This document shows, one piece after another, positions 8,531-28,147 of a DNA stretch of 64,000 bases. Position numbers and translations under genes: made by a program. The first letter of the stretch is position 1. The number at the start of each line of letters is the position of its first letter. The notes below the pieces were generated by a model. The model was not told the origin of the DNA. It searched no databases and saw nothing but the letters and a program-made list of their open reading frames with translations. Origin of the DNA: Sphyrna mokarran (taxonomy: Eukaryota); contig JAGIQG010000040.1 of the NCBI GenBank assembly GCA_024679065.1, positions 4,898,001 through 4,962,000 of the forward strand, in the 5' to 3' direction.

Positions 8531-9028
8531 GGTTAGTAGTGTCCATTAAGAGATCAAAATGTTCTGAATGGCAGAACAGAAGTATAAATGATTAAGACAG
8601 TTGGCCCAGAGAGGGGAGGCACAAGGAGAATGGCCAAAACGAAATGGAAAAAAAATGGGAGCGAGAAAGAAAAATGATGTAATGATGATGGAGATGAAAA
8701 GATGAAACAAAATAAATAAAAATAATGAAATTCTGTGAGGAGGAGAAAAATTAATGCTCCAAAGGTTCACTCAAATTCAATTGGAGGCTTTAAAGTACCC
8801 ATTCGAAGATGAGGTACCGTCCTTTGGATGCTTTGGGGCTCAGTTGAACATTGCAAAAGTCAAGGGTGGATGTATGGACAGGAATTCAAGTAGTGTGTCA
8901 AATGCAACACTTTGATCTTAGAGCTATTTTAAACGACCGCGTTCTAGTTCAAAGTGGGTGTTTCCATCTGCAGAGTTATAGGCGCAGCGTGCGTCATAGA
9001 ATTGTGTTACATTGAGCGAGGCTCTGAC

Positions 9029-9067
9029 AGTTTTTGTGCAGGTTCAGCCCAGCTCTGTGTCTCTGTG
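9029..9067 (-). other. 23-RSS of V1
   Basis: CACAGAG (9067-9061) + 23 nt + ACAAAAACT (9037-9029). Confidence 0.92.
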
Positions 9068-9984
9068 GGTCTCAGTGCACAGTAATACACCCCGGAGTCT
9101 GCCAGCTCTGTTTTAGACACTTTCAACGGGACGGTACGGGTTGTATCATTGAGCTCCGCTAAAAAACGGTCCCCTGAAGGCCTCCCTGTATTCCCGGTGT
9201 ATTTATTTGTCTGCAGCAGATATTCCATGGCTCCGCTGGGATAGTGACGGTACCAGAATAGATAAAAGATGTTGCTCGTAGTTGTGTAATTGCAGGGCAG
9301 TCTAACATCATTTCCTTGAGTGACGGTGACTGCAGCCGCCGTTTGTGAAACAGAATCTCCCCGGGAATGTCCTGTAAGAATCCAAAGAAATATGAAATTA
9401 AACATTGCAATTTCACCCAGTTTTCCCAGATTTTGCCCGTTATCGGCAAAAATAACCTCAGAGAGAAATCAGACAGCAAAATAGAACATTAGAATAGAAC
9501 AAAATAGAAAATAGAAAAATATTTTTCACAGTTCAGTGGATGGAATGGGAAGACGTTTGTGGCGATTAAGTAAACTTCCACCATAAACATTCTCTTCTTT
9601 CTAACGAGATCAGTTTCTCGTCTTCAGTCCCTGTAACTGGAAACTGCTCACGGTCTGTCTGTTTGAAAGGTGATGGTTGCCAAAGGGGTTCACTGGTGTC
9701 AGAGGAGCTTGAATCTGAAGAGAATTGATTCTCTATTAATCCCTCGGGGAAATGTGCCAAATCGCAGCAGTGTTCAGTGTTGAGACCAGCGAGATTCAAA
9801 TAACTTTTCGATGTTGTGATCAATCCATTCCCTGATCAGCCACTTCCCCCCGCTTCCATTGAGAGAACCGCCCGACAGAATATAGTGTGCGGTAATGATG
9901 TGTAACACAAAGTGAGCAACTTGTGAACTTACCGATTAACAGAGCTGCTGCTGTGAGGAATAAGTACAGAGTAACAAGACACAT
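9068..9984 (-). CDS. TCR alpha/delta-like V segment V1 (leader exon 9984-9933, V exon 9371-9068), apparently intact
   Basis: Leader MCLVTLYLFLTAAALLI + phase-1 gtaagt; acceptor ttcttacag; V domain DSVSQ..C..FWYRH..DSGVYYCALR followed by an RSS. Confidence 0.9.
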
Positions 9985-10059
9985 GTTTGCAGAACTGGCG
10001 GCGGATTTGACCAGAATGGGTTGAAGCTGAATTTGTTTCGGTCAAGAGTTGGGAAAAGG

Positions 10060-10112
10060 TTGAGTTATATCCGGCTCCCTGTTGATTGGTTTACTGTTGA
10101 AAACGTCATCAG
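10060..10112 (-). promoter_or_regulatory. V1 promoter (CRE-like TGACGT, CCAAT, TATA-like)
   Basis: Reverse complement shows gatgacgttt...aaccaatcaac...gatataac 80-125 bp upstream of ATG; similar atgacgct...aaccaatcaac upstream of V5 (16881-16910). Confidence 0.55.
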
Positions 10113-11213
10113 ATGAGATTCAATCGACTTCAATCTTCCACGTTCTTCCGTTCAACCAATGACCTCACAGTTCCTTTATCTGCAATTCATCCCACGAAAA
10201 GAACAAGTGAATTTAGTCATCCCACAACAGGGCAAGACTTTCCTCTTCAACTATCATTTCAGGAACCGACCGGTCCCTTGAGGCCTGATGGCTCTGTTCT
10301 GACATGGAGAATGACGATATCCATCCTCACAGCAGCATAAAAATCAGTTTGTTATTAATCATCTTTTGGATAGCAGTTATAGTGCAGGGGAGGATGACTT
10401 TTTTAGTCAAAACATCTACATCATAAGAAGTGATAGAATAGTGAATGATCTAAGATACTTCCATATGCTGTTCTCTCAATTTGCAATTCTGCACTCTGTG
10501 AAATCTTTCAGAGTAGAAATATAGCTTGTCTCCCATTGGACTGCTAATCCAATCAGTACCAAACAGGGAAAAGCAACAAAGATTAATATCTCCAATGAAA
10601 TATCCAAGAAAACAGCACAGGAGAGACGGGTAAGAGTGCGAACAGCACAGGAAAACCATAGGCAGTGTGGTGACAGCTAGGATTTATCTGCGAGGAGTTG
10701 AATTCAATAACAATGTCACATTGGAAATTCTATAACTTTGCCTCTCTATATGAGAGGTAACTGAATGTCCATTCCATATGCGGACAAGGATTCTTGCACC
10801 AAGAGTATCGGATTAGTGTGTGATTCAATGCAAAGCGAAATCCTTATTAGTGATGTGAATGGAAAATGGGACTGAATAGCTGAGCAGTCAGATTGGAGAG
10901 GTTCTGAATTAATGTACAAGGTAATAGAAAAAGCTTTAATGTTTACGTTAAAGACTGGGAAAGCAAATGTACACAATTTCCATAAATCTGCAGACAAGGA
11001 CACTCTGGAGTAAATAGAGAAAGGCATCGAAAACGGAAAAAAAAATGTTGCGGTACCTCAGATCGATATCGCAAATGTAAGTTCCAACCATTAACCAATG
11101 TAACTGCAAGAGGACCATACCAGTTGCTGTTTTTTTGAGAATTATCTTTGGTTGCAATTTTAAGAATCTCCGTCATTCTCTCTGTGGAAAGTGAATGACC
11201 CGCGTGTGTGCGT

Positions 11214-11227
11214 GCGCACCCTTCTGG
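11214..11227 (-). promoter_or_regulatory. Degenerate CTCF-like motif downstream of V2 RSS
   Basis: CCAGAAGGGTGCGC preceded by GCAGTTCCAGTTAGTG, at the same position as in V3/V7/V8. Confidence 0.5.
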
Positions 11228-11252
11228 GCACTAACTGGAACTGCCAGTGTAG

Positions 11253-11292
11253 GGTTTTTGTACGACATTAGCTATAGCTCTGCAGCAGTGTG
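11253..11292 (-). other. RSS of V2 (24-nt spacer)
   Basis: CACACTG (11292-11286) + 24 nt + ACAAAAACC (11261-11253). Confidence 0.85.
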
Positions 11293-11791
11293 GGCTTCAT
11301 GGCACACAAATACACGGCGCTGTCGGAGATCACTGTGTTATTGATCGTTAGCTCGCTAGTCTTGTTCTTTTTATCAAATTTGGAAGAAAACCGATCATTG
11401 AGGTCGGCATTCCCATGCACATTCTTTCCAATAAGCTGAAACATGTACACTGGAGCTTTCCCGGCCTGCTGACTGTACCAGTACACATAAGGGTTGGGAG
11501 CGCTTGTCTTCAAAGCACAGGTTAGTGTGACATCATTTTTTTCTTGAACCTTTATTACAGGATAAGGTTGTTCCACTTTGTCTTGGTGGCTCCATTCTAA
11601 CAGAAACAACAACAATATGACAATCAGAGTTAGCCTCAGATTAAACGATACAATTATCATTGTCACTATTATTTTACCAACAAAAAATATCTGGGTTACG
11701 ACACTCATGAGGAGCTTATAGTTTTACTGGGAAGAAAATACTGACTGAGAAGTGAGATAATGATGAGGATCGGAGTGAGATAATTCACCAT
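11293..11791 (-). CDS. TCR alpha/delta-like V segment V2 (leader 11791-11746, V exon 11596-11293)
   Basis: Leader MVNYLTPILIIISLL, donor gtcagt, acceptor tctgttag; V domain with C, VYWYSQ, DSAVYLCAMK. Confidence 0.88.
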
Positions 11792-13981
11792 GATGCTTTC
11801 TGAGTCTGCAACTCTGTAATGAGAGAAATCCTGTCAGAGATGGAAATACACAGTTCCACTGCGCTGCTGATCCAACCAATGAGAAGAATGGAGCAGCGGC
11901 AGTCATCTGTCCAATCACACAATAGGTTCAGAGTGAGCGCAGAAAACGGAAGTGGGCGGGGATGCGGTAGACAAAATACTGAGTGAAGTGTGCAGCTGCC
12001 TCAGCTGCACCCGGAACGGAAACAGCGTGACTTCAATCTCCGGAATCTGTCACCATTCTGCACCTGCTCAATGTTCAAGTGACTGAGAAAAAGATAGAGA
12101 AGGGAGGGACATAACAGAGCCAGGGACATGAACAGAATGGAAACAGAGCGTATCAATGCAGGAGATGAGGCCACTCGGCCCGTGGTATCTTCGCCTGACA
12201 GAATTCAGAATTGATGTGAAGAATTCAGAATTGACAGAATTCTTCAATTCATCTTTCAAACCCCACATCTCTCACAGTGACTGCATTTTTCTGCTTTCAA
12301 CCTATCTCTCATTCCCTTCTGAAACTTACTATTGCCTCTTCTTCCGCCATCTCTTTAGTCACCGCAGGGATAGGGCCTGGGTAAGAGTCGGTACACATTT
12401 GATGGGCTGAATGGCCTCCTTTTGCACTGTAAGGGTCCTATGACAAATATGACCACCTTCCAAGTTTAACTAATCGCAGAGTAATCAATTAATCTCATCT
12501 TTCCATTGCCCTCTCCCCTCCTAAAGTAGACTCTGGTGTTTTCCAATGTTCTGGCAGAGGAAACTGTCACATGCGATTTACTTTAACAAAACCATATGAA
12601 GTTGAGCACCTCAGTTTGGACTGTCTTATACCTCCTTAGATATTAAGAGATGAACCCTTGAGCCACAATGGATAGTGTTTGTGACTCTGGGGCAGATACT
12701 TCGGCTTCAGTTCGAAAGCCGGTACCTGTTGCTAAGGATATTTATTGAAGCCTTAGCTATTACTACCCCTAACTCCAGATAATAACATGGAAAAAAGGTG
12801 AATTAAGAACATAAAAGTACATAAGGGCTTTGCCGCTGCAACTCAGACTGCTCCACGGGAATGGTTTGAATAGAGAACAGGTTGTTGTAAGAACAAGGAG
12901 CCCTATTCCAATTCGGGCTGTGGTGTATTTGAAACGTGCCTCTTTGTCCTTCCCGTAGTGTAGCTCATCTTTGCAGAGAAAAAAAGAATTGCAGTTTGTC
13001 TAGTCCACCTGCATCGCAATTCCTCATCTCTGCTCAATCCTTTTTCCAATGAAGGCCACTGAGAGGTTTTCAGGTTCGTTCATTTACAAACGAAAACACG
13101 AATATCTTCAGACAGGTCTAAATTTAATTTGGTCGGACTGAGTTAAATTCTTTGACGTTTAAGCTACGTTTTATCACTATTTAGGAACCAGGGAATCACC
13201 ATTTAGTGAGACGGTGAAGACATTGGAGAAAGCAAATGTCCACGGATGACGGCATTCAATGATCAGATGACTTGCTCTTCTTTTATCAAATAATGAAATG
13301 AGTTTCTTAATTTTAGTACTCAGGTTTTTTAAATTGATGGAATAGATTACGCAGAACTGTTTCAATCAGTAGAATATTCGCTAATCCAAGTATGTCAGCG
13401 TAAGAGAAGAAAAGGCATTGAATGATCGTGTTCACTTGTTGCACTGCCAGTTGTTCAAAGCTGGAATCACATTGCTTCAGATGGTGGCAGAATATTAAAC
13501 ATAAATTATTAAAAGGAAATTATATGTATCCTGAACAAAGAATCTGAATGTGGCAAATGCAGGGATGAATGATGATTTGGAGAACTCTTCCAAAGAGATA
13601 TAGATAGAATGAATGGCCTTATTCTGCGCTCAAAGACTCTATAATTTTCGTTGCTTCATGTCCCAGTCGCTCTATTTATTGTTAGAGATTTGAGCAGGTG
13701 CAAAATGGTCAGAGACTTCTGTAGATTTAACCATCGCTATTTCCGCCCCGACTGCAACTGAGAGTCGCCGCACACTTTTGCTCAATATTGAGTCTGCCTA
13801 TTTCCGCCCACAGCTTCCATTTGCTACTCTGACTCTGACCCGATTGCGTGATTGGACAGATTGCTGTCGCTGCTCCATTCCTCTCATTGGTTGGATCAGC
13901 AGTGCAGTGGGACGGGCATCTGTATTTCTGTCTCTGACAGAGGATTTCTCTCACTGCAGAGCTGCAGACTCAGGAAGGATC

Positions 13982-14591
13982 ATGGTGAACTGTTTCACTC
14001 CGATCCTCATCATTATCTCACTTCTCAGTAAGTAGCTCTTGGGGCGAAAGGGATCAACAGATATGGGGGGGGAATCGGGATCAGGTTATTGAGTTGTACG
14101 GGCAGCCATGATCGCAATGAATGGCGGGACAGGAGCAGAGGGCCGAATGGCCCCTTCCTGCTCCGATCTTCTATATAGTCATGTATTTCCTTTCCCATAA
14201 AGGCGTATCTTATTAGTGATCGTTTAAATTGCGATTTTCTTCAGAAAAATACTTTTTTAAAAATTTTTAATACTTATTTTATGTCAGAATGGAGTCACCA
14301 AGACACAGTGGAGCAGCCGGTTGCTGAAATAACAGTTGAAGAGGAAACTAATGTCACATTAACCTGCATCTTGAAGACAAGCAATTCCAACCCGTATGTC
14401 TACTGGTACAGTCAGAGTCCCCGACAGCCTCCACAGTACATGCTTCGTATTCTGAATGGGAAACTACAAAGATATTCCGATATCAGCGACCGCTTTTCAG
14501 CGACATTAAATAAAACTACCAAGATTACCCAGCTAATGATCGGCAACACGCTGTTGACTGACAGTGCGGTGTATTTCTGTGCCTTAGATCC
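13982..14591 (+). CDS. TCR alpha/delta-like V segment V3 (leader 13982-14027, V exon 14288-14591)
   Basis: Leader MVNCFTPILIIISLL + gtaagt; acceptor tgtcag; VYWYSQ..DSAVYFCALD. Confidence 0.9.
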
Positions 14592-14629
14592 CACACTGTT
14601 ACAGATGTAGCAGGTCCCATACAAAAACC
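14592..14629 (+). other. RSS of V3 (22-nt spacer)
   Basis: CACACTG (14592-14598) + 22 nt + ACAAAAACC (14621-14629). Confidence 0.88.
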
Positions 14630-14653
14630 CCAGAGTAAGAGTTCCAGTTAGTG

Positions 14654-14667
14654 TCAGCAGAGGGCGC
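14654..14667 (+). promoter_or_regulatory. CTCF-like motif downstream of V3 RSS
   Basis: TCAGCAGAGGGCGC 24 bp after the nonamer, preceded by GAGTTCCAGTTAGTG. Confidence 0.65.
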
Positions 14668-14824
14668 GCTCACGCCGTTAGACAATAAAGACAAACTCCA
14701 CAAATTTTGCAGTCGAATATCCCGCATTTGGAGACATCGCAGACGTCAGCACACCGGAAGTGCAATGGGTTAGCCTCGTCCTGGGCGAACCACCCGCTTG
14801 ATCATGGTTTCACCCCAGCCGCAG

Positions 14825-14972
14825 AGGCTGGAGTAGATTTAACCTGAGGGTCACATCACACCTCAGGAGAGATGGCGGCAACTTCATGAATAACCTCAGC
14901 TGATGCAGGTATTGAAACTGTGCCATCAGCGCTGCTTTGCATCACAAACCAGATATTCAGCAACTGAGCTAA
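14825..14972 (-). mobile_element. tRNA-derived SINE fragment
   Basis: Reverse complement ttagctcagttgc...tctggtttgtgatgc...tcagctgaggttattcatgaag; related piece at 24455-24540. Confidence 0.5.
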
Positions 14973-15609
14973 ACAACAATAGAACATAGAACATAGATCA
15001 TAGAACATTACAGCGGAGAACAGGCCCTTCGGCCCGCGATGTTGCGCCGACCAATTAAGAAAAAGCAATGACCCTCTAACCTAAACCATTCCTTTTTCAT
15101 CCATAAACCTATCCACGGACCTCTTAAATGCCCCCATTCTCTGGGTTTGCTGTACATGTATCTGAGCATTTATGATTCATGCAGCAGGACACGCAGAGCC
15201 CTCTGGATCTAAGTCCTTTGCAATCTCTTATCATTTGCTTAATAAAATTCCTTGTGTTTCTTCCTGCCAAAATGTATCACATTACATTCGCTGTTTTTGA
15301 CTTTCTTCCTCTTTTTGCATTGTTCCCCAATTGTCTGTGCTCTGTACCTATTCTCGCTGCACGTTTTCGCTTTGTCCTTCACTCATTCTGATTTGCATGA
15401 AATCTCTTCCATTTTTTTCGAACACATTCCCCATTCTCTTCATTTTAACCTTTTTAGAACTTTCTCATTCAAGAAATGTTTTGCTCTCATTCCTCTTACC
15501 ACTAGAATTTAATACCGCACTTCTTGAAACGCTAATATTTCTGTGGAGCGGGTTTTGAAAACGGTGCAGGGTTTTGTATGGACCCCCCTGTGTTTTTTTT
15601 TGCACTGAA

Positions 15610-15938
15610 CCTCATGGCGCAGAGATAGGTGGCACCGTCTGAAACCTGTACGTCTCTCATAGTCAGGAAGTTGAGTTTGTTGCCTTCACCGATCGAAGCA
15701 GTGACCCTCTCGTGTTGATTGGTTCCTCTTGCGGCCATCGCCGGATGCTGGGGCGGCTGATTCGTGAGCTGTTTGTACCAACGCAGGAGTTCAAACGTAA
15801 TGGAGGTGATGCAGTTCATGAGTACATTTCGCGCCTCACTGGCAACCTCCCGTGGAGCAACTCAGCTTCTCCGGTCACCCCCGTGCAGGTCAGAGTGAAA
15901 AACAATAAAAAGTCGATGCAAATCCTGAGCATTCTCAT
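15610..15938 (-). pseudogene. V segment V4, pseudogene of the intronless leader-V family
   Basis: ATGAGAATG leader MRMLRICIDFLLFFTLTCTGVTG continuous with EAE, then a frameshifting deletion; RWYKQ..YLCAMR; heptamer mutated to TTCAGTG (15609-15603), 25-nt spacer, nonamer ACAAAACCC. Confidence 0.85.
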
Positions 15939-17007
15939 TTCACATGCAACACAGAGAACCAGATGAAAATTAACAAGGAGCCAAGTATTTTCTTGGGGTT
16001 CAGTTCAGTGCTGTATTTAGCTTGAACTGACAATATTAGGCGGGTTGTTCTTTAGCCACCCATACTGAGCGTTTCACGCTGACACGGGCTCACACTGCCT
16101 CTGAGTACACATCTGACCCGCCCAGATTAAATATTTCTCACCCACACTTTGCTCTTTGCTGGTGTGCACTGGTAATTGCAGGGTGCAATTCTTGATTTGG
16201 TTCGTCGACAAGTTGCAATTTATACGATAGTTATAAATAAGAACAGCTGTTTCCTCCTTGTTATAGCTCTATTATTGCGGGAGAGCTTAAAATTTTCCTT
16301 TTGTTCTACTATCCAACAATTGCAATGCATTTTGCTGTCTCGTTCTTCCTAAAGTTTCATTCCACACTGTGACTAGTCCGGGTGTGACAAGAAGGTCCTG
16401 ATGTTAGTCCTAAAGTATCGTTCAATAACTTGAGAACTTGTGTAATGGGAAGTGGTCTATCCATCAAATATTTATTACATAACTACAAGAATACCAACAC
16501 TGAAAACTTATATAAAAATATTCCAAAAATTATATGTTCATCAGTGTTAAAATTATCTTTATGCATTTCTTCCTCAATCAGGTTCTCTCCAGTGTAGACA
16601 CTCGCGCCAATGCTGAACTTAATGCAGTGTCCTTCTGTCCTGTCCTGGTGGAAAAAAAGCACTATACTATACAACTTTAAAACAACCTGTTTCACTTCTG
16701 ATTTCAACAACTGCTGATCGTACATTCTCCTCAGTATGGAATATACGTTTAATTTCTCTTCGTTTTGAATGCGCCTGGTGGTAAACAAACCCACTCATTT
16801 CCTTTCTCCAACCCCTGACAGCCAAAGAAGCTGATTGGATCATTTCAAGACATTGGAACTCTAAGCTTGGATGTCAATGAATGACGCTGTCAGCAATGAA
16901 CCAATCAACAACGGTTCAGATAGAACTCAACTTCTTACCAGCTCTTGACGATTAATATTTCGGTTTCAACCCTCTCTGCTCACATCCGCCTCGAAATCTT
17001 TGCAAAC

Positions 17008-18431
17008 ATGTCTCCTGTGACTTTGTGCTTATTCCTCACAGCGGGAGTTCTATTAACAGGTAGGTTCACAAATTACAAACCCTGTGTTTCACATATTTAG
17101 CATTCACTGCATTCAGTTGAGCAATTCGATTAAGAAATTGGTAAAATATATATAAATTGGTTATTTATATATACATATATAAAATATAAAATAAAATATA
17201 CCAATATGAATTAGAATTCACCTTGTCTCAGCAAGGGAGCAAGCAAAATACTTTCGGTGAATAAGAGTGAAGACTGAATGTGGGATTGCAGGCTCCGCTA
17301 GAGCCAGTGGGAGATTTTGACAAACACAATGAAATCTGGATAAAAGCTTTGTCAAGCCTGAGATCTTTAAACCCACAGGCAGTTTTGTTTCCCCATCAAA
17401 TAACGTCAGACGAAGGCGAGGGTCTGATCTCTTTGGAAGATGTTTAAACAAAACAGAAATTTGGATCTATCGAGTCACATTCCAGCCCGGGATATGACTT
17501 GTCCAGTAGTAACATCAATTAGGATCATAACATGTAGACACAACAAGGAGAGCGTGCAAACTTCACACAGGCATGCAGTGAAAGAACTCCCAATGGTACA
17601 GCTCCCACTTTCACCAGTATTGGTGTCAGTTCCATGAATTAATACACATTTCCGCTACAAACGGAAGCCTTTTTCCTAGGATGGAGTAAGCTAGCACGAG
17701 GGGACGCAGCTTTAAATTAAGGGGTGATAGTTATAGGACGGATATCAGAGGTAGGTTCTTTACCCAAAGGGTGGTTCAGGAGTGGAATGCCCTGCCTGCA
17801 GCAGTTGTAGATGCGCCAAGTTTGGTGGCGTTTAAGAGGTTAGTTGATAAGTATATGGAAGAGAAGGGAATGGTTTAGTTTGGAGGGGCATTGCTTTTTA
17901 TATTGGTCGGCGCAACATCGAAGGCCGAAGGGCCTGTTCTGTGCTGTAATGTTCTATGTTCTATAACACGTTCCCGTTACAAACTGCCTGTTGCGGGAAA
18001 TATATTCATTTTTAGATCCTGTGATTCATTTTTCAAATTATTGGCCAGGGTGACGGGCCGTATCCGGCTGTTAAACAAGATGAGCTGACATCATTTAATT
18101 TCTCATTACTCTTGGCTCTTACAGGACAATGTGGAGGAGATTCCGTTTCACAGATACCGGCTACAGTCACAGTGAGTGAAGGAGATGATGTTCAGTTATT
18201 CTGTAATTATACCATTACAAGCATTGATGGTTATTATCTATTCTCGTACCGTCAGTATCCCAGCGGATCCATGGAGTATCTACTGACGAGAAGTAAATAT
18301 ACCGGGAACGCAGAGAGATTCCCAGGGGACCGATTGTCAGCGGAGCTCGATGATACAACCCGAACCGTCCCGTTGAAAGTGTCTAAAACGGAGCAGGCAG
18401 ACTCCGGGGTGTATTACTGCGCACTGAGCCC
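17008..18431 (+). CDS. TCR alpha/delta-like V segment V5 (leader 17008-17059, V exon 18125-18431); open frame but conserved Trp replaced by Ser
   Basis: Leader MSPVTLCLFLTAGVLLT + gtaggt; acceptor tcttacag; LFSYRQ instead of LFWYRQ; DSGVYYCALS. Confidence 0.85.
17660..17965 (+). mobile_element. CR1 LINE 3' fragment in the V5 intron
   Basis: ggtaggttctttacccaaagggtggttcaggagtggaatgccctgcc...ggccgaagggcctgttctgtgctgtaatgttctatgttcta tail. Confidence 0.8.
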
Positions 18432-18470
18432 CACAGAGACACAGAGCTGGGCTGAACCTAAACAAAAACT
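18432..18470 (+). other. 23-RSS of V5
   Basis: CACAGAG (18432-18438) + 23 nt + ACAAAAACT (18462-18470). Confidence 0.92.
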
Positions 18471-18524
18471 CTCAGAGCCTCACTCAACATAACAGTGCGC
18501 TCGGCAAATATTGCGAATAGGGAT

Positions 18525-19585
18525 CATTGTTTTTCAAATTGTAGGCAGTAACTAGTAGGGTGCCACAAGGACCGATGCTGGGACCCCAACTCTATACACT
18601 AATGATTTGGATGAGGAAACAAAATGTAACATCTCAAAGTTTGCAGATGGTACCAAGTTGGGTGAGAAGGTGAACTGCGACAAGGATGCAGAGATCCTTC
18701 AGAATGATCTGTACAGATTGGATGCTAATCAATTGCATAAACAGTATAATTTGGATAAATGTGAAGTTATTCACGTTGGAAACAAAAACAGGAAGGCAGA
18801 TTACAACCCGAATTGCAGTAAATTGGGAGAGGGGAGTGTGCATTGGGATCTGGGTGTCTTGTGCATCAGTCACTGAAGTAAGCATGCAAGTGCAGCAGGC
18901 GGTAAGGAAGGCAAATAGCATGTTGGTCTTCATTTGCGAGAGGTTTCGAGTATAGGGGCAGGGATATGTTTCTACAATTATACAAGGCCTTGGTGAGGCT
19001 ACACCTAAAGCACTGTATGCAGTTTTAGTCTCCTTTTCTGTGGATGGATGTTCTTGCTCTCGAGGGACCGCAGCAAAAGTTTGCCACGCTGATTCCGGAG
19101 ATGGTGGGACTGATGTCTGAGGAGATTGACTTGGTTAAGATTGTTTTCGCTGGAGTTAAGACGAACGAGAGGAAATCCCACGGAGACTTACAAAATTTCG
19201 AACAGGAATAGACAGAGTAGATGCAGAGAGGATATTCCCGATGGTGGGAGGGTGTCGGGGAAGTCTAGGGGTCTAGAACCAAAAGCCTCAGTTTGAGTAT
19301 TCAGCGTTGCCCATTTGGGATGGAGATGAGGAGACAATTCTTCCCCTAAAGAATGGTGAGCCTGTGAAATTCGTTATCATAGGAAAAAATTGATGCCAAA
19401 ACATTGAATGTTTTTAAGAGGTGGCTGGAAATAGCACTTGGGGCGAATGGGGTCAAAGGTGATGGGGAAAACACAGGATTAAACTATTGAGTTAAATGAT
19501 CAGCCGTGATCTTAATGAATGGCACAGCAGGCTTGAAAAGCCAAATGGCCTCATCCTGCTCCTATCTTCTAGTTTCTATGTTTGA
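18525..19585 (+). mobile_element. CR1 LINE ORF2 3' part, degenerate
   Basis: ISKFADGTKLG...DKCEVIHVG RT C-terminal motifs and CR1-type tail. Confidence 0.85.
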
Positions 19586-20227
19586 GCTGCCAGGATATCC
19601 GGTATGCTTAATTTTATTGTTCTAAATTTTTAGAATAAAACTTATTGATGTGAATTGGCTGGTTGTTTAATGAACATAAAATAAATCACAGAGCACTTTC
19701 TTGATGCCTAGAAGTGTTTGACTGTCATGGTTATGATGTACTGGAGACAACACACAGCACAGTATGACACATTAATCACTAATTTTATAATGACCTGTCT
19801 GTTTATAATGGCTAAAGGACAGTCAATGTGGTATCATTATTCCTGAAGAGAGGAAAGGATAAATCAGGAAACTGCAGGCATGACATCAGTGGTAGAAAAA
19901 GATTGGAAGCAATTCTGAGAAACGGAAGTTATCTGCAGTTGCAGAGGCAGAGATTAATCAAGAACAGTCAGCACGGTTTTATTAACGGGAAGTCGTCCAT
20001 TTCCTTCTTGTTCAATAAACGAAATTCAAAATCCAATTGAATTCATTTCACAGTTCGCACATGAGTGGCAAACATATCCAAGCTGACAAGATAAGGCATT
20101 GCATCCCGTTTTGGGAACATAGGAATTAGGAGTGAGAGTAGACAATTCTGAGGTCTCTATCTACTTCAAGAAGACGACCATCATCACAATACCAAAGAAC
20201 AGCCAGCAGCGTGCCTTAATGGCGATC

Positions 20228-20730
20228 ATAGAACATAGAACATAGAAAAACTACAGCACAAACAGGCCCTTCGGCCCACAAGTTGCGCTGATCACATCCC
20301 TAATTACTAGGCCTATCTATAACCTTCAATCCCATTAAATTCCATGGACTCATCCAGAAGTCTCTTAAAAGAGTTCGTCTCCACCACTACCGACGGCAGC
20401 CAATTCCACTCACCCACCACCCTCTGAATGGAAAACTTACCCCGACACCTCCTCTGTACCTATTCCCCAGCACTTTAAATCTGTGTCCCCAGCCCTGGGA
20501 AATAGCCTCTGAGAATCCACCCGATCTATACCTCTCAACATCTTATAAACCTCCATCAAGTCACCTCTCATCCTTCGTCTCTCCAGGGAAGAAAGACCGA
20601 GCTCCCTCAAGTTATCCTCATAAGGCATGCCACCCAATCCAGACAACATCCTTGTAAATCTCCTCTGCGCCTTTTCAATAGCTTCCACATCTTTCTTGTA
20701 ATGAGGCGACCAGAACTGTGCACTCCAAGT
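20228..20730 (-). mobile_element. CR1 LINE 3' fragment
   Basis: AQFWSPHYKKDVEAIEKAQRRFTRML...LERRRMRGDL; (tagaaca)n tail. Confidence 0.85.
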
Positions 20731-20759
20731 CTGACTAGGGACAGTGGGATCGCCCGATG

Positions 20760-22930
20760 GCTCTGACATCCATTTTTGTGAAATGCTTCGAAAGATTAGT
20801 CAAGGCACGAATCAATTCCAGCTTCCCAGACTGCCTGGGTCCACTACAGTCCGCCGAATGGCACAACAGGTCCAAGCAGACGCCATCTCCCTGGCTCTGC
20901 CCTCAAGCCTGGAACATCTAAATAACAAAACACCTATGACAGATTCCTATTCATTCACTATAGCTCGGTATTTAACACCACTATTCCTGCGAAAATCATC
21001 TCCAAACACCGTGACCTGGGTCTCGGCTCCGCCTTTTGCGGCTGGATCCTGAACTTTCAAACCCACAGAAAACAATCAGTAAAGATAGGGAATCAGACTT
21101 CCTCTACGTTCTTCCTTAACACTGATGCCCCACAAGGTTGTGTTCTCAACTCTCTATTATACTTCTTACAAACCTATGACTGTGTGGCCAAATTCCCCTC
21201 CCCCCCCCCACCCGCCCTCACCCCCGCAATTTTCAAATATGCTGAGACACCAGCATAGTGGGTCAGATCTCAAATAATGAAGAGACAGAGTACAGGGATG
21301 AGATAGAGAATGTGGTGAACTGGTGCGGTGACAATAATCTCCCCCTCAATGTCAGCAAAACGACAGAGATTGTATTCGGAGTCAGGAAGCATAGTACAGA
21401 GCAAGCCCCTCTCTACTTCAATGGGGGTGAAGTAGAAATGGTCGGGAGATTCAGGCTTTCCGTTGTCCAAATCACCAACAATCTGCGCTGGTTCTACCCT
21501 ACCCCCCTCCCTACCCCCGCCATTGCCCCCCCCCCTTCCCCCGCCCCGTGCCGACAATATAGTCAAGTAAGATCAATTATTTTCGCAGAAGATTGAGTAA
21601 ATTTGACAAAGAACAAAGAAGAAAACAGCATGGGAAACAGGCCCTTCGGCCCAACGAGCCCACGCCACCACCCCAATGTTCCTATCTCTACCCGTGATCC
21701 CTGTCCATATTTATAGATCTATGGATTAAAAACCAAATTTGAGACAATTTAGGGAGAATTTGTTTTGCCAATTAGCCTAAGAGCACATCTTTGGGATGTG
21801 GGAGGAAACCGGAGCACCCGGAGAAAACCCACGCAAGCACGGGGAGAATGCGCAAACTCCCACAGACACAGGCCCAAATCCATGTATCTGCAAAGCACAG
21901 CGATAGTCACTGAGCTGTCGTGTTGCCCATCAAATGGTCCAGGTCAAGCGTACACTAACGACGTGAAGCAGTAGGATACTCTCGAAAAATCCAAGAGCAG
22001 TCCTCTCACGACCCATCGCGTGTATGCCCCTCGTTAGACAACAAGGTGGACCAAAGCACCTGTAGGATAAAAACAAGTACATCAATATCATCATCTATTT
22101 ACACACTTCCCAGGGACTCCCAAGGCTCATGATCCCTATTTTAAATCAGTTTTCTATACCCCTCCATTCCCATTCTGTTCATGTGCCCATCTAAGTATTT
22201 CTTAAATAACTCCAGAGTACCTGCCTCCAAAACTTTACTTGGCAGCGCATTCCATACCCCCACCACCCTCTGTGTGAAAAAACTCCCTCTAGCATCCAAA
22301 TTATACCTTACCCCCCTCACCCTAAGCCCGTGACCCCTCGTGCTATTTGAGTCCATTCCAGGAAAAGGATGTCAGCTTCGAATCTCACCAACTTTTACAG
22401 ATGCACCATAAAAAGCATTCTTTCTAGTTGTACTCAGAGATTAATCCAGTCCAACACTGGCATCTCCACATCAAAGATTGGTCATGACTCCTGCTCTGCC
22501 CAAGGCCGCAAGAAACTGAAAGAGGGCCTAACCGTAACCCAACATATCATGCAAACCAGCCTCCCATCCATTGACTCTGTTATCACTTTTCGTTGCCTCA
22601 GTAAAGCAGCCAGTATAACTAAGGACCCCACGCACAAGACATTCTCTCTCCCAACTTCTTCCATCGAAAAAACAGTTACAAAAGTCTGAGGTGACGTACC
22701 AACTGACTCAAGAACAGCATTTTCCCTGCTGCCATTAGGCTTTTGAATGGACCTACCTTGCATTAAGTTGATATTTCTCGACACCCTAGCTATGGCTGTA
22801 ACAGTACATTCTGTGTACAATCTCTCATTTCCTTCCCTATGAACGGTATGCTTTATCTGTGCAGCGCACAGGAAAGAATACTTTTCACTGTCTACTAATA
22901 CATATTGCAATAATAATTTAAATCAAATCA
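20760..22930 (+). mobile_element. Rex1/Babar-like LINE, degenerate, interrupted by a CR1 insertion at ~21606-22368
   Basis: gccccacaaggttgtgttctc, YRDEIENVVNWCGDNNLPLNVSKTTEI, LTNFYRCTIKSILSSC motifs; (aatca)n tail. Confidence 0.7.
21606..22368 (-). mobile_element. CR1 3' end with embedded V-SINE-derived 3' UTR
   Basis: FFTQRVVGVWNALP ORF2 end followed by V-domain and ggccgaagggcctgtttccc tail; same architecture as 41820-43097. Confidence 0.8.
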
Positions 22931-23707
22931 ATTCAGCCCTTCGAGACTGCTCCGCCATTCTCAGTGTTCATAATTTCGCTCCATATCATCCTAACTCCAC
23001 TTCCCTACCTTATCCCCATAGCCCTTTTTTCCGCTTTTCAATCAACTTAGTGAATCTGCTCTGCACTCCCTCCAGTGTCAGTATGTCCTTTCTCAAGTAA
23101 GGAGGCCAAAACTGTACACAGTAATAGAATGATCATGGTCACTTGTTGCACTGCCTGTTCTTCAAAGCTGGAAACCCCACTGACTATAATTGCCCAGAAT
23201 ATTAAGCAAAAATATTTAGAAAGAAATGATATTTATCTTGAACAAAAAACCCTGTATGTGCAAAAAATGTAGGGATGAAAGGAGACTTGGAGAACTATTT
23301 CAAAGAGGCACAGATAGGAGGGAATGGCTTCATTTGGCGCTCCGAGATTCTATAATTCTAGTTGCTTAGTGTCCCTGCCGCTCTACTTATTGTTAGACAC
23401 CTGAACAATGAACAGGTGCAGGATGGTCAGACACTTTTGTAGATTCAACCGTCACTATTTCCGCTCCATCAGCTCCGAGTGCAGCTAAGAGCCACCGCAA
23501 CTTCATCCAATAATAAGTCTGCCGTATCCCCGCCCACTGCTTCCGTTTGCTGCCCTCATTCTGTCCCGATTGGGTGATTGGACGGATTGCTGTCGCTGCT
23601 CCATTCCTCTCCTTGATTGGATCAGCAGTGCAGTGGGACGGGCATCTGTATTTCTGTCTCTGACAGAGGATTTCTCTCACTGCCGCGTTACAGACTCAGG
23701 AAGCATC

Positions 23708-24324
23708 ATGGTGAACTATCTCAGTCCGATTCTCATCTTTATCTCACTTCTCAGTAAGTAGCTCTTGGGGGCGAAGGGGATCAAATGATATGGGGCAAAG
23801 CGGATCGAGTTGTGTGATCAACCATGATCACCATGAATGGCAGGACAGTCTCCAAATGCCGAATGGCCTCCTCCTGCTCCTACCTTCGATATGTTAATGT
23901 ATTTCCTTTCCTATAAAGCCAGATGTTATTTTTGACCAATAATAGTGATCGTTTTAATGACGATTTTGTTTAAAATCGGTGCTGACTGATTTTTTTAACT
24001 TTTTCTATTATTTTATATTAGAATGGAGTCACCAAGACACACAGGAGAAGCCGGTTGTTGAAATAACAGTGGAGGAGGGAAGTAATGTCACATTAAACTG
24101 CAACTTGAAGGCAAGCATTTCTAACCCTGGTGTGTACTGGTACAGTCAGAGTCCCGGGAAGCCTCCACAGTACATGCTTTACATTGTTGGAGCGAAGCTG
24201 TTCAAACACACCGACATCAGCGACCGCCTTTCAGCGACATTTAATAAAACTGCTAAGATTACCGAGCTAATGATCGGGAACACGCTGATGACTGACAGTG
24301 CGGTCTATTTCTGCGCCTGGAGTC
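23708..24324 (+). CDS. TCR alpha/delta-like V segment V7 (leader 23708-23753, V exon 24022-24324)
   Basis: Leader MVNYLSPILIFISLL + gtaagt; acceptor atattag; GVYWYSQ..DSAVYFCAWS. Confidence 0.9.
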
Positions 24325-24362
24325 CACAGTGTTACAGATACGGCGAGTCCCATACAAAAACC
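24325..24362 (+). other. RSS of V7 (22-nt spacer)
   Basis: CACAGTG (24325-24331) + 22 nt + ACAAAAACC (24354-24362). Confidence 0.9.
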
Positions 24363-24387
24363 CCGCAGTAAGTGTTCCAGTTAGTGC

Positions 24388-24401
24388 TCAGCAGAGGGCG
24401 C
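24388..24401 (+). promoter_or_regulatory. CTCF-like motif downstream of V7 RSS
   Basis: TCAGCAGAGGGCGC 25 bp after the nonamer. Confidence 0.65.
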
Positions 24402-25262
24402 TTTCACACCGATAGATAGTAACAATAAAGGTAAAGTCACCATCGCCGAGATGTCCAGGGGCTGGTGGTGATTTAACTTGAAGATCACACCAAATCTCAG
24501 GCGAGGGGGTCAAGGTTGAGATAACGCGACTTGATGAAGGACCTTTGACAAAGTGTCATATGGACTCGAAACGTCAGCTCTTTTCTCTCCTTACAGATGC
24601 TGCCCGACCTGTTGCGATTTTCCAGCATTTTCTCTTTTGGTTTCATAGAACACCTCAACACCAGTCATTAGATTGGTTCCACTGGTGGTCGCAGCTTCGA
24701 GGGCCGAAAGGCCTGTACTGCGCTGTAATGTTCTATGTTCAACGGTACAGGGGCGAATTTGTAATGTAAGTGTCTCTTTGGTGTTACAAACCAGACATTC
24801 AGTAAGTGAGCTGGACAACAATATTCTCATTACTTTCTGTACCTGTGTACGATTACTTGAGATTCACACACTAGGACACGCAATCCCTCTGAATCTAGGA
24901 ACTCTGCAATCTCTCACCGTTTAGTTAATAAGCTCCGTGTGTTTCATCCTGCCAAAAAGTCACAACACATTCGCTGGTTTTGACTTTGTCCTTCTCTTTG
25001 CATTGTTTCCTAAATTTTGTGCTTTATAAATTAATAAACCAAAGCGCCTTTTCGTTTTGAATTTCGCTCATTCTGATTTCCATGCAATCTCTTCCATTTT
25101 CTTTGAATACATTTCCAACGCTCTTCATTTTAACCTTTTTAAATTTTTTTTAAATTTAAGAAATATTTTGCTCTCATTCCCTTTACCATTGGAATTTAAT
25201 ACCGCGCTTTTTAAAATGCTGATGCTCCAGGCACGGTGGAGCGGGTTTTGGAGACAGTGCAG

Positions 25263-25301
25263 GGTTTTTGTCCGGGACCTCCCTGTGTTTAACACACTGT
25301 G
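25263..25301 (-). other. Consensus 23-RSS of V6
   Basis: CACAGTG (25301-25295) + 23 nt + ACAAAAACC (25271-25263). Confidence 0.95.
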
Positions 25302-25634
25302 CCTCACAGCGCAGAGATAGGTCGCAGTGTCTGAAACCTGTACGTCTCTCACAGTCAGGACGCTGAGTTTGTTGCCTTCAGCGATTGAGGCAGTGATCCT
25401 CCCGGGTTGATCGGTTCCTCTTGTGGCCATCACCAGATGCTGGGGTGACTGATCCGGGAGCTGTCTGTACCAACGCAGGATGCTAAAAGCAATGGAGATG
25501 GTGCAGTTATGGGATACGTTTCGCGCTTCACTGACAACCATCCGCGGAGGGAATTGCATCACTTCAGCTTCTCCGGTCACCCCCGTACGGGTTAGAGATA
25601 AAAATAGGAGAAAGTCGATGCAAATCCAGAACAT
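25302..25634 (-). CDS. TCR alpha-like V segment V6 with leader and V in one exon
   Basis: ATG 25634: MFWICIDFLLFLSLTRTGVTG|EAEVMQ..C..LRWYRQ..DTATYLCAVR, no intron. Confidence 0.85.
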
Positions 25635-26569
25635 TCTCAATTATCGCGCAAAACCTGAAGATGAGAATTAACCGGGAGCCAAATACTTTATTCGGGTTCA
25701 GTTCAGTTCAGTGTTTAGGTTGAACTGACAATAGGCGGGTTCTCCTTTAACCCCCCACACTGACACCAGCTCACACAACCTCTGAGCACCCACCTGACCC
25801 GCTCATCTTAAATATTCCTCACCCCTCACACTGCTCTCTGCTGGTGTATGCTGGTAAATGCAGGGTGTAATTCTTCACTTGGACCTCGACAAGTTGCCTT
25901 TCACCAAATAATTACAAATGAGAACAGCTGTTCCCTTCTTCCGGTTATAGGTCTTTTATTGCGGGAGAGCTTGCAATTCTCTTTTATTCTACTTTCCAAC
26001 GATTGCAGTGCATTTACTCTTTCATTCTTGCTGAAGTTTTATTCCACTGTGGCCAATTGCGGTGTGCCAAGAAGATGTTAGTCTAAAATAACGTTCCATA
26101 ATTTCAAATTGTTGAACACGAACTGATCCATTTATCGAATATTTGTAACATAACAGTACTGGCAACATTGAAAACATATAAGAATATCTTTAAAATATTA
26201 ATAAGTTTGATATCGGTGTTAAAATGATGTTTCTGCTTCCGCATTTGTTCCTTCAATCAAATATTCCTCAATGAAGAAATGCGTCCGATAATGAACTTAA
26301 TCCATCTGCTCTCTCCTGCAGACAAAAGCAATACAATATACAACATTAAAATCTGTTCCACTTTTGGAACCAAGACTGATTCCAACAATTCCGTTATCTA
26401 CAACAATGACCTCTTGTCCTAGGCTGTTCTAGAAAGGGGAACACTTGGTTAACATTGCCTTTACCAATCTAATTGAGTGTTCTATATGCCTCAATCAAAT
26501 CCCCCTCATTCTTCTGTACTCCAGCGAGTATGAGCCCAAGTTACTAAACCGCTTCTCATATGACAGCCC

Positions 26570-27110
26570 ATTCATGATACTGATGAGAACACATGTGGAA
26601 TACCGTAACCAGTTTTGGGCCTCTTATTTAAGGAGATATATTATTTCATTGGAGGTAGCTCAGAGAAAGTTAACGAGGATGATCCCCGTTGTGGAAGGAT
26701 TGATTTATGAGAAAAGGTTAAACAGGATTGCACTCTACCCATTGCCATTTAGAGAGTGAGAGGTGATTTAACTGAAATATATAGGATTACTGAGGAACTT
26801 GACAAGCTAAATGCTGAGAAGATATTTTCCCTAATGGAAGAGTTTAGAACCAGAGGACAAAGTCTCAGAACAAATGGGCGCCAACTGAAAACTGAGATGA
26901 GGAACAATTTCTTCATACGGAGGATTGTAAATCTTTGGAACTCATTGTTGCAGAGAACCGTGAAGGTAAAGTCATTGTTTATATTTAAGGATGAGATAAA
27001 TAGATTTTTGATCAGTGAGCGAATCAAGAGTTATGGGGAAAGAGCAGTAAAGTCTACGTGAGGAATATTGGGACATCCATGATTCCATTGAATGAGAGAG
27101 CAGACTCGAG
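26570..27110 (+). mobile_element. CR1 LINE 3' fragment
   Basis: QFWASYLRR..LEVAQRKLTRMIP; RGDLTEIYRI..FFIRRIVNLWNSL. Confidence 0.8.
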
Positions 27111-27659
27111 AGGCCTTACCCCGGCCTTTCGTCATTTGGGATTATGGTTACAGCCTGGTTATTTTAAGTCGAAAACACGGGGCTGTCAATTCTGTCAGAA
27201 AACACTCAGTCGAAAGGAAAATAATCATCGATTTAACTAAGGAGTGTAATCAACAAATTGGGAAATGTATTCGTTTTCTACAAACTGTATCTCAACAAAC
27301 AACATGTTCTAATCATATAGAAACTATGCACCGGTTGTGATAAATGGGACTCAGAGAGTAGAGATTGAGAATGTTTTGCTCATTAATTCAAATAGACCGG
27401 AAAATATCATGAAAATACAAAACGTGAGTGAGGGCATAATAAATTGATGTGCGAAATTATTTTGCAGTATACACGTACACGTACTATACACGATAGTTAC
27501 AACGTACCTAATACAATTTCTCTGTTGCTGCTCACCTATTCATAACAACAAAGAACAAAGAGCAAAGAGCAACACAGCACGGCCCTTCATGTTGAATGTT
27601 GTGTTATTTTAGTAACGGCCTGAACTCTCACAGGAATTGCTTCTGTTTATCAGTGGGGC

Positions 27660-27673
27660 GCGCCCTCTGCTGA
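27660..27673 (-). promoter_or_regulatory. CTCF-like motif downstream of V8 RSS
   Basis: TCAGCAGAGGGCGC 25 bp after the nonamer on the minus strand. Confidence 0.65.
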
Positions 27674-27698
27674 TCACTAACTGGAACTCCCAGACTGG

Positions 27699-27738
27699 GG
27701 TTTTTGTCCGGGGTTCGCCATATCTCTGCACCAGTGTG
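27699..27738 (-). other. RSS of V8 (24-nt spacer)
   Basis: CACACTG (27738-27732) + 24 nt + ACAAAAACC (27707-27699). Confidence 0.85.
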
Positions 27739-28147
27739 GGCTTCATGGCACAGAAATACACGGCGCTGTCAGAGAGAAGCGTTCCGGCGATAGTTAAAAG
27801 GACCGTTTTGTTTCCTTTGTGCGAAACGGCAGAAAATCTATCCGGAGAATCTTTAGTGCCTACTGTCAATAAATAATTCGGAGCTTCCCCGTGAGACTGA
27901 ATGTACCAGAGCAGAGTCGGAATAACAGCTGTCGAGTAATTGCAGGACAATGTTACGGTCTGTCCTTCTTTAACCGTTAGTTCAGGGGGATCTTGGAACA
28001 CTTCATCTTTGCCATTGGTTCCTGCAACAAATAACAGAATCTCTTAAATGTCTGATGGAGAACGCTGAGAACAAACAGCAAAAATATAAACTTAAACTTA
28101 CTGGACAGGAAGACCAACAATATTAGTAAAGAAAATTGGAAGAACAT
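27739..28147 (-). CDS. TCR alpha/delta-like V segment V8 (leader 28147-28102, 80-bp intron, V exon 28021-27739)
   Basis: Leader MFFQFSLLILLVFLS + gtaagt; acceptor gttgcag; VTLSCNYS..LLWYIQ..DSAVYFCAMK; TATA-like gatataaaa ~85 bp upstream. Confidence 0.9.

Follow-up and report, generated by a model that had tools for sequence, protein, structure and literature searches.

A predicted CTCF-binding cassette beside the recombination signals of one T-cell receptor alpha-type V clan in Sphyrna mokarran

Introduction

Does a CTCF site placed next to the recombination signal sequence (RSS) help the V segments of a shark T-cell receptor (TCR) locus to recombine? The question is raised by a window (the whole stretch of DNA analysed here) of 64,000 nt from Sphyrna mokarran, assembly GCA_024679065.1, contig JAGIQG010000040.1, positions 4,898,001-4,962,000 of the forward strand (G000:C994:4898001-4962000 in our genome coordinates, C994 being this contig). 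Four of its V segments, V2, V3, V7 and V8, carry a CTCF-like core at a nearly constant distance past the RSS nonamer. The block that contains the core is a conserved two-part motif inherited within a V clan, and likely a CTCF-binding site; that it aids recombination of its own V is the reading toward which we lean, with reserve.

RSS-associated CTCF-binding elements are known on mouse and human immunoglobulin heavy chain (IgH) VH segments of clans 2 and 3 (PMC6746451, PMC4914699). In the majority of D-proximal mouse VH genes a CTCF site lies at most 20 bp from a weak RSS, impedes loop extrusion and raises usage (PMC11153149, PMC7930373); mouse proximal VH RSSs are described as weak and reliant on the adjacent sites (PMC11153149), and non-functional mouse VH as typically without one (PMC6746451). 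The CTCF sites of mouse Tcra/Tcrd lie upstream of V promoters or between genes, and only two Tcrb sites are near an RSS (PMC5859386). CTCF fingers 9-11 bind a CTGCAGTTCC-like upstream motif at 5-6 bp spacing (PMC12885311), and the CTCF of lamprey recognises that two-part motif as well (PMC5504073); given this identity between lamprey and mammal, fingers 3-11 are assumed to be conserved in this genome. Titles and abstract openings gave no report of an RSS-adjacent CTCF site in sharks, supplements and most subscription papers being outside that scope.

Results

Position and score of the core motif

A sequence-only reading had proposed a CTCF-like motif 24-25 bp past the nonamer of these four V segments, preceded by a shared block, turning with the V and missing from V1, V5 and V6, and each of these observations was reproduced. 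V3, V7 and V8 carry TCAGCAGAGGGCGC and V2 carries CCAGAAGGGTGCGC, each on the strand of its own V and preceded by GTTCCAGTTAGTG; the nonamer and core are separated by 24 bases in V3 and 25 in V2, V7 and V8. With a matrix approximating JASPAR MA0139.1 (maximum 27.9 bits), the cores score 12.1 (V2), 14.7 (V3), 15.3 (V7) and 17.4 bits (V8), which on this matrix corresponds to per-site p of 1.3e-5 to 6.6e-7, and differ from CCASYAGRKGGCRS by one or two mismatches; the motif is absent from V1, V5 and V6. The parts of the four genes and the three control RSSs are as follows.

11746..11791, minus strand: V2 leader exon, spliced in frame, GT donor, AG acceptor
11293..11596, minus strand: V2 V exon, open, TCR-alpha-type, W24 subfamily, in deletional orientation to the J array
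11253..11292, minus strand: V2 RSS, heptamer CACACTG, 24-bp spacer, nonamer ACAAAAACC
11237..11246, minus strand: V2 upstream (U) motif-like block TGGCAGTTCC, 8/10 to CTGCAGTTCC, 6 bp before the 19-mer around the core
11214..11227, minus strand: V2 CTCF-type core CCAGAAGGGTGCGC, 12.1 bits
13982..14027, plus strand: V3 leader exon, GT/AG splice
14288..14591, plus strand: V3 V exon, open, W22 subfamily, inversional orientation
14592..14629, plus strand: V3 RSS, CACACTG, 22-bp spacer, nonamer ACAAAAACC
14636..14645, plus strand: V3 U-like block TAAGAGTTCC, 6/10, 5 bp before the 19-mer
14654..14667, plus strand: V3 CTCF-type core TCAGCAGAGGGCGC, 14.7 bits
23708..23753, plus strand: V7 leader exon, GT/AG splice
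24022..24324, plus strand: V7 V exon, open, W22 subfamily, inversional orientation
24325..24362, plus strand: V7 RSS, CACAGTG, 22-bp spacer, nonamer ACAAAAACC
24369..24378, plus strand: V7 U-like block TAAGTGTTCC, 5/10, 6 bp before the 19-mer
24388..24401, plus strand: V7 CTCF-type core TCAGCAGAGGGCGC, 15.3 bits
28102..28147, minus strand: V8 leader exon, GT/AG splice
27739..28021, minus strand: V8 V exon, open, of the K24 subfamily and with 40-46% identity to V2/V3/V7, in deletional orientation
27699..27738, minus strand: V8 RSS, CACACTG, 24-bp spacer, nonamer ACAAAAACC
27683..27692, minus strand: V8 U-like block TGGGAGTTCC, 7/10, 6 bp before the 19-mer
27660..27673, minus strand: V8 CTCF-type core TCAGCAGAGGGCGC, 17.4 bits
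9029..9067, minus strand: V1 RSS, 23-bp spacer, without the cassette (control)
18432..18470, plus strand: V5 RSS, 23-bp spacer, without the cassette (control)
25263..25301, minus strand: V6 RSS, 23-bp spacer, without the cassette (control)

All four carriers thus have a leader, GT/AG splice sites, an open V exon and a V-set domain. Among solved structures the best single-domain matches of V3 are mostly TCR alpha chains, and we infer that the locus is TCR alpha; a constant exon was not recognised in 20 kb at C994 4.36-4.38 Mb.

Scores of this kind are uncommon in the locus at large, where ∼0.3% of random one-strand windows of the same size reach 12 bits. The survey sample was 1.08 Mb, comprising part of the V array and other receptor loci. 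A first carrier label, set by a regular expression, was too loose (13 of the 29 labelled rows were 23-spacer V at -4 to -8 bits) and was therefore replaced by a homology label. With the latter, 12 of 17 carriers having a good protein match and an RSS score at least 12 bits, a figure that is partly circular because the flank profile contains the motif; none of 131 non-carrier V, likewise with a good protein match and an RSS and scored on the same strand within 64 bp, reaches 10 bits (maximum 4.1). In carriers the 19-mer starts 21-23 bp past the nonamer. The CpG of the core is retained in 15 of 15 intact carriers in a region whose CpG observed/expected ratio is 0.55.

Searches placed the whole cassette on C994 and its copy C742. 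A flank nucleotide profile gave 46 matches in the sample, all at C994 2.5-6.07 Mb, and a whole-genome DNA search gave 26, all on C994 or its copy C742; a strict nonamer-plus-core pattern had 20 matches genome-wide against 3 for the control, 10 being this cassette and 10 scattered singles. That pattern formed no cluster elsewhere in the genome, at a stringency that weaker TCR-beta sites could escape, the TCR-beta V not having been fetched, and the cassette was not found in 160 kb sampled from IgH-, IgL-, gamma-like and NAR-TCR-like V loci. Taken by itself GTTCCAGTTAGTG is unspecific (153 genome matches against 79 for the control), and in the first 30 genome matches examined it was never followed by a CTCF core. 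A repeat origin of the cassette is not supported, many of the GTTCCAGTTAGTG matches lying in repeat-like context unlike the cassette. The copy on C742 (44-63 kb) is a reverse-oriented, apparently identical version of the V cluster, either a haplotig or a recent duplicate.

The upstream block and the pattern of conservation

The spacing of the two halves agrees with that of two-part CTCF sites. Between the end of the GTTCC block and the 19-mer there are 5 bp in V3 and 6 bp in V2, V7 and V8, and when the consensus CTGCAGTTCC from PMC12885311 is slid along the flank, at least 6 of its 10 positions match at a linker of 5-6 bp in 17 of 20 distinct cassette sites, compared with 0-2 of 20 at seven other offsets. 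The match rests mainly on the GTTCC half and amounts to 5-8 of 10 in the four V of the window. The same offset of 5-6 bp is also the peak for 68 unrelated CTCF motifs of the locus (mean 4.25 versus 2.7-3.7), eight of which reach 6.

Between-family identity was taken from 13 intact carriers, over 63 pairs in all and 40 deep pairs (values given as all/deep). It is 93/92% in GTTCC and 74/76% in the core, compared with 47/44% in the first 10 bp downstream of the core, 33/31% at +31-60 and 51/43% at FR3 third codon positions. The motif is hence more conserved (core 74-76%, GTTCC 92-93%) than the flank beyond it (31-47%), a point on which the sequence-only reading had made itself depend. Contigs from three DNA runs were compared over window positions 9000-18700, a range that leaves V7 and V8 outside; pieces from two other organisms cover the V2 and V3 cassettes at ∼97% identity, which is too close for a test of conservation.

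One V clan and its RSS spacers

In a tree of 64 rows (non-carriers thinned at 75%, non-TCR-alpha rows left out), 14 carriers form one side of a single branch with support 89/91, and the four copies in the window are accordingly one inherited element rather than four events. The W family (V2, V3, V7) is 25-45% identical in protein to the K, A and M families. The sharing of the cassette between these groups was thus rightly seen by the sequence-only reading, but its 'two families' are parts of one deep V clan. With seven foreign proteins added (37 rows), the carriers and a non-carrier subgroup form one clan (98/99), on which the carrier label needs two changes. Loss of the cassette by deletion was looked for in the flanks of the sister subfamily, whose alignments to it were mostly not above shuffles.

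The clan also differs in its RSSs, a feature that the sequence-only reading had missed: the spacer is 24 bp in V2 and V8 and 22 bp in V3 and V7, and 23 bp in V1, V5 and V6. Across the array the intact carriers have 22 bp in 5 cases, 24 bp in 10 (three of them set by hand, with a decayed nonamer) and 23 bp in none of 15, while 114 of 123 intact non-carriers have 23 bp. The heptamer is CACACTG in 14 of 17 carriers. In the 24-bp class (11292-11286 and 27738-27732) a second CAC begins two bases into the heptamer and would give a 22-bp spacer.

Two smaller features of the V genes were seen. V4 (window ∼15535-15900, minus strand) is a broken V with a damaged heptamer, lying tail-to-tail with V3. Compared with its paralog at C994:3333123, V8 (27739-28021) is shorter by ∼8 residues around CDR2, with the frame kept.

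Read-through protein records from other species

Germline read-through open reading frames (ORFs) carry the V flank in translation, and so give protein-level hints, not DNA alignments. Their tails were scored by a codon-averaged likelihood ratio, for which controls from the window give 4.5-14 bits; word-index protein searches returned one match apiece. The nearest named relatives are from horn shark (62% identity) and little skate (60%). P0111 (Heterodontus francisci) groups with V2/V3/V7 with support 100/99, and its tail, ending TKTHTESSTLCSAEGAL, scores 10.1 bits for a core placed 24 nt past the nonamer, with GTTCC compatible and a different linker on a reading of the codons. The tail of P0062 fits a core at 25 nt, with an apparent 23-bp spacer (10.1 bits), and P0001, 83% identical to the region of V2, has a tail that repeats that of V2. 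P0005 (Leucoraja erinacea) ends QKVALGVAVSAH-stop, which in an unscored reading allows GTTGC, then 9 nt, then CCACTAG, provided that the stop is TAG. Read in the same way, the horn shark, skate and Logan tails have linker sequences unlike that of this genome. The good fit in horn shark and the compatible record in skate suggest that the cassette is old.

In total 13 of 64 read-through tails score at least 8 bits, against 2.2% of shuffles, although the rows are not independent. The other high-scoring tails include teleost records with cores ∼25-45 nt out. P0006, P0091, P0120, P0128 and P0151, four of them teleost, are TCR V tails compatible with a core ∼25-45 nt behind the nonamer.

Locus setting

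The V array on C994 spans ∼2.5 to 6.3 Mb (from the best 150 of 435 candidates). Minus-strand J arrays, recognised by FGxGT motifs among the first 100 of 115 matches, occupy 4.385-4.462 Mb and ∼3.08-3.13 Mb; the J array is long and has 12-RSSs. Continuous reading of C994 4.44-5.115 Mb found no V between 4.462 and 4.907 Mb, where ∼445 kb of C2H2 zinc-finger genes lie instead. The window therefore holds the most J-proximal V cluster, in which the carriers have, descriptively, V ranks 2, 3, 6 and 8 from J. Only one CTCF motif of at least 15 bits was found in 405 kb between J and this cluster, versus four in the 25-kb cluster itself. This layout is repeated at the second locus, where carriers have about V ranks 2, 5 and 7 (one fragment counted); that locus looks like a duplicate and so is not independent. 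All eight carriers with an intact ORF, a nonamer with at most one mismatch and a core of at least 12 bits belong to the first ∼11 V counted from the two J arrays. The motifs of V2 and V8 face the J array (minus strand, lower coordinates), as in mouse.

CTCF motifs are dense in the V array at large, 16.1 per 100 kb compared with 2.5 in shuffled sequence and 5.5 in 30 other places of the genome. A minisatellite at C994:4494500-4495100 (L161), ∼33 kb upstream of the first J, is made of 22-25 bp units with a CTCF-type core; 12 copies reach at least 12 bits, all facing the V array, and it was not seen at the paralogous locus. Upstream of V6/V8 there are further CTCF-type motifs at 25847 (minus strand, 13.0 bits), 29014 (plus, 20.5 bits) and 30040 (plus, 17.1 bits), and other V families have family-specific upstream CTCF motifs ∼550-1500 bp before the heptamer.

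The two J-alpha-type arrays (3.08-3.31 and 4.385-4.91 Mb) are each split from their V by 170-445 kb of C2H2 zinc-finger genes, and no delta-type D-J-C was seen between them and their V genes. Near 3.85 Mb there is a small group of D/J segments on the plus strand. At two places within the TCR V array, C994:5097338-5097789 and C994:4165573-4166007, a D-type RSS comes after an IgH-like V and its 23-RSS.

Discussion

How the cassette may act

In the mechanism we propose, the cassette would raise recombination of the TCR-alpha V segments to which it is attached: CTCF bound there would hold the V near the J-alpha recombination centre and keep its RSS accessible. In V2 and V8, which are deletional, the effect would be like that at mouse VH81X. 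Linear scanning would fail for the inverted V3 and V7; their site may act through extrusion stalled nearby followed by local diffusion, or through local nucleosome positioning. The minisatellite near J might serve as a convergent anchor, one that the second locus is without. The transfer of the mouse mechanism made by the sequence-only reading thus suits V2 and V8, which face J, and fails for V3 and V7, whose motifs point away; its wider claim, an equivalent of the RSS-associated CTCF element in TCR V genes of cartilaginous fish, is borne out as to CTCF likeness by score, geometry, conservation, clan membership, J-proximity and the foreign tails.

Several points weigh against this account. CTCF binding and a role in V usage are both predicted from the sequence, with a matrix that approximates the JASPAR one; the cores reach moderate scores, and three of the four open with T in place of C. 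The linker is 70-72% identical between families, conserved like the core though it would be expected to be non-specific, and the conserved AGTTA within it is unexplained by CTCF. The 5' half of the upstream motif is 45-50% identical, the 3' half alone being kept, and the RSS spacer and the gap between nonamer and U block (60-63%) also exceed the downstream flank, a pattern that could stem from old gene conversion. The inverted V3 and V7 have motifs directed away from J, and the intact V of the array number 57 on the minus and 51 on the plus strand, so that inversional joining must be frequent in this locus, as it is in Igk, where it proceeds by diffusion. Among the intact carriers, the distal ones show decayed motifs (-7.6 to 8.8 bits) or nonamers that are dead, and many broken V copies keep 17-24 bits. 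P0062 and the skate record combine the motif with what appears to be a 23-bp spacer, so the motif can do without off-size ones, and with one clan and a duplicated cluster the links to spacer and to proximity amount to about one event each.

Other explanations

The distribution of strong and decayed copies bears on a different use of the site. Strong motifs on intact proximal carriers and decayed ones on distal carriers fit a proximal role and also an architectural one, in which a real CTCF site would serve insulation or the spacing of extrusion barriers and would be RSS-adjacent only through duplication with its V clan. This we regard as unlikely, while giving it real weight: strong motifs persist on broken V copies and are lost on several distal intact carriers, the array is CTCF-rich in any case, two-part sites are typical of insulators (PMC12885311), and half of the motifs in the window face away from J. 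A free site, however, would not have to keep its distance to the nonamer within ∼1 bp, as this one does in horn shark and between families with 25-45% protein identity, and the intact strong copies are J-proximal.

Identity along the flank peaks at GTTCC and at the G-rich core instead of declining evenly from the RSS, horn shark, with a V just 62% identical, has a fitting motif at an unchanged offset, and the CpG is retained. These facts make it improbable that the block is a neutral 3' flank, inherited or gene-converted across one V clan, with a CTCF-like word in it by chance, even though its origin is single, the spacer and gap are elevated too (60%), identity falls just past the core as a conversion tract might end, and the locus is rich in recent duplications.

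Least probable of all is that the element is mainly a site for another factor, with the CTCF likeness secondary, for instance a Myb-type protein (consensus YAACKG) on the opposite strand of CAGTTA: the linker is conserved within this genome, a loosened CAGTTA-type word occurs in 11 of 15 intact carriers and matches to the 5' half of the upstream motif are poor, but the horn shark, Logan and skate tails have other linkers and yet, on the codon reading, remain compatible with GTT(C/G)C and the core positions, the GAGGGCGC half and its CpG are kept, and the geometry fits the CTCF two-part spacing.

Comparison with known sites

The shark cassette resembles the IgH VH sites in its short fixed distance from the nonamer, its single orientation relative to the V, its restriction to one V clan, its proximity to the D/J end and the CpG at the 3' end of the core; its RSSs may be suboptimal as well. 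It is carried, however, by TCR-alpha-type V and not by Ig VH, and measured from the nonamer to the same reference point it lies at 22-23 bp, compared with 17-19 in mouse and 19 or 48 in human, that is 4-5 bp further. Mismatches to the mouse VH 14-mer number three in V2, four in V3, three in V7 and two in V8, so that V8 alone falls within the two-mismatch rule of PMC6746451. The shark site has half of an upstream motif and a conserved linker, whereas the mouse gap between RSS and site is described as not sequence-conserved. Uniform orientation toward the recombination centre is a feature of the IgH VH sites, while the shark V lie in both orientations and half of the sites face away; shark pseudogenes often keep the motif, the reverse of mouse VH; and the IgH VH sites are backed by function in mouse, where the shark cassette is known from its sequence. 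Differing in locus, in uniformity of orientation and in bias toward functional genes, it is best described as a variant of the RSS-associated VH site.

The V regions of mouse Tcra/Tcrd and Tcrb are, like the shark array, CTCF-rich with sites in both orientations, and several non-carrier shark families have upstream motifs near the promoter as in Tcra/Tcrd; the cassette differs from the mouse Tcra/Tcrd sites in being RSS-adjacent. Its likeness to the two-part vertebrate CTCF site consists of a core with a CTGCAGTTCC-like block 5-6 bp before a TGG-like triplet (PMC12885311, PMC10484683, PMC5504073), although, unlike in the typical site, this block is well matched in its 3' half alone.

Implications

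Control of V(D)J recombination by CTCF and cohesin has been worked out almost solely in mice. A broader proposal, which we put forward as speculative and on present evidence doubtful, is that RSS-adjacent CTCF sites were an ancestral device of jawed-vertebrate TCR-alpha V, which sharks, skates and possibly teleosts retained but mammalian Tcra lost; they would let off-size 22/24-bp RSSs, inverted ones included, be captured across the 445-kb zinc-finger insert, which is free of CTCF barriers, with the convergent CTCF minisatellite upstream of J as anchor. The window offers a natural experiment, with the same cassette on deletional V2/V8 and inversional V3/V7 beside the cassette-free V1/V5/V6, all within 19 kb, and the layout of this V cluster could separate scanning from diffusion. 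If the reading of the cassette as an aid to recombination is true, a conserved site on a shark TCR-alpha clan would date the design to the base of the jawed vertebrates, or would show that it arose twice.

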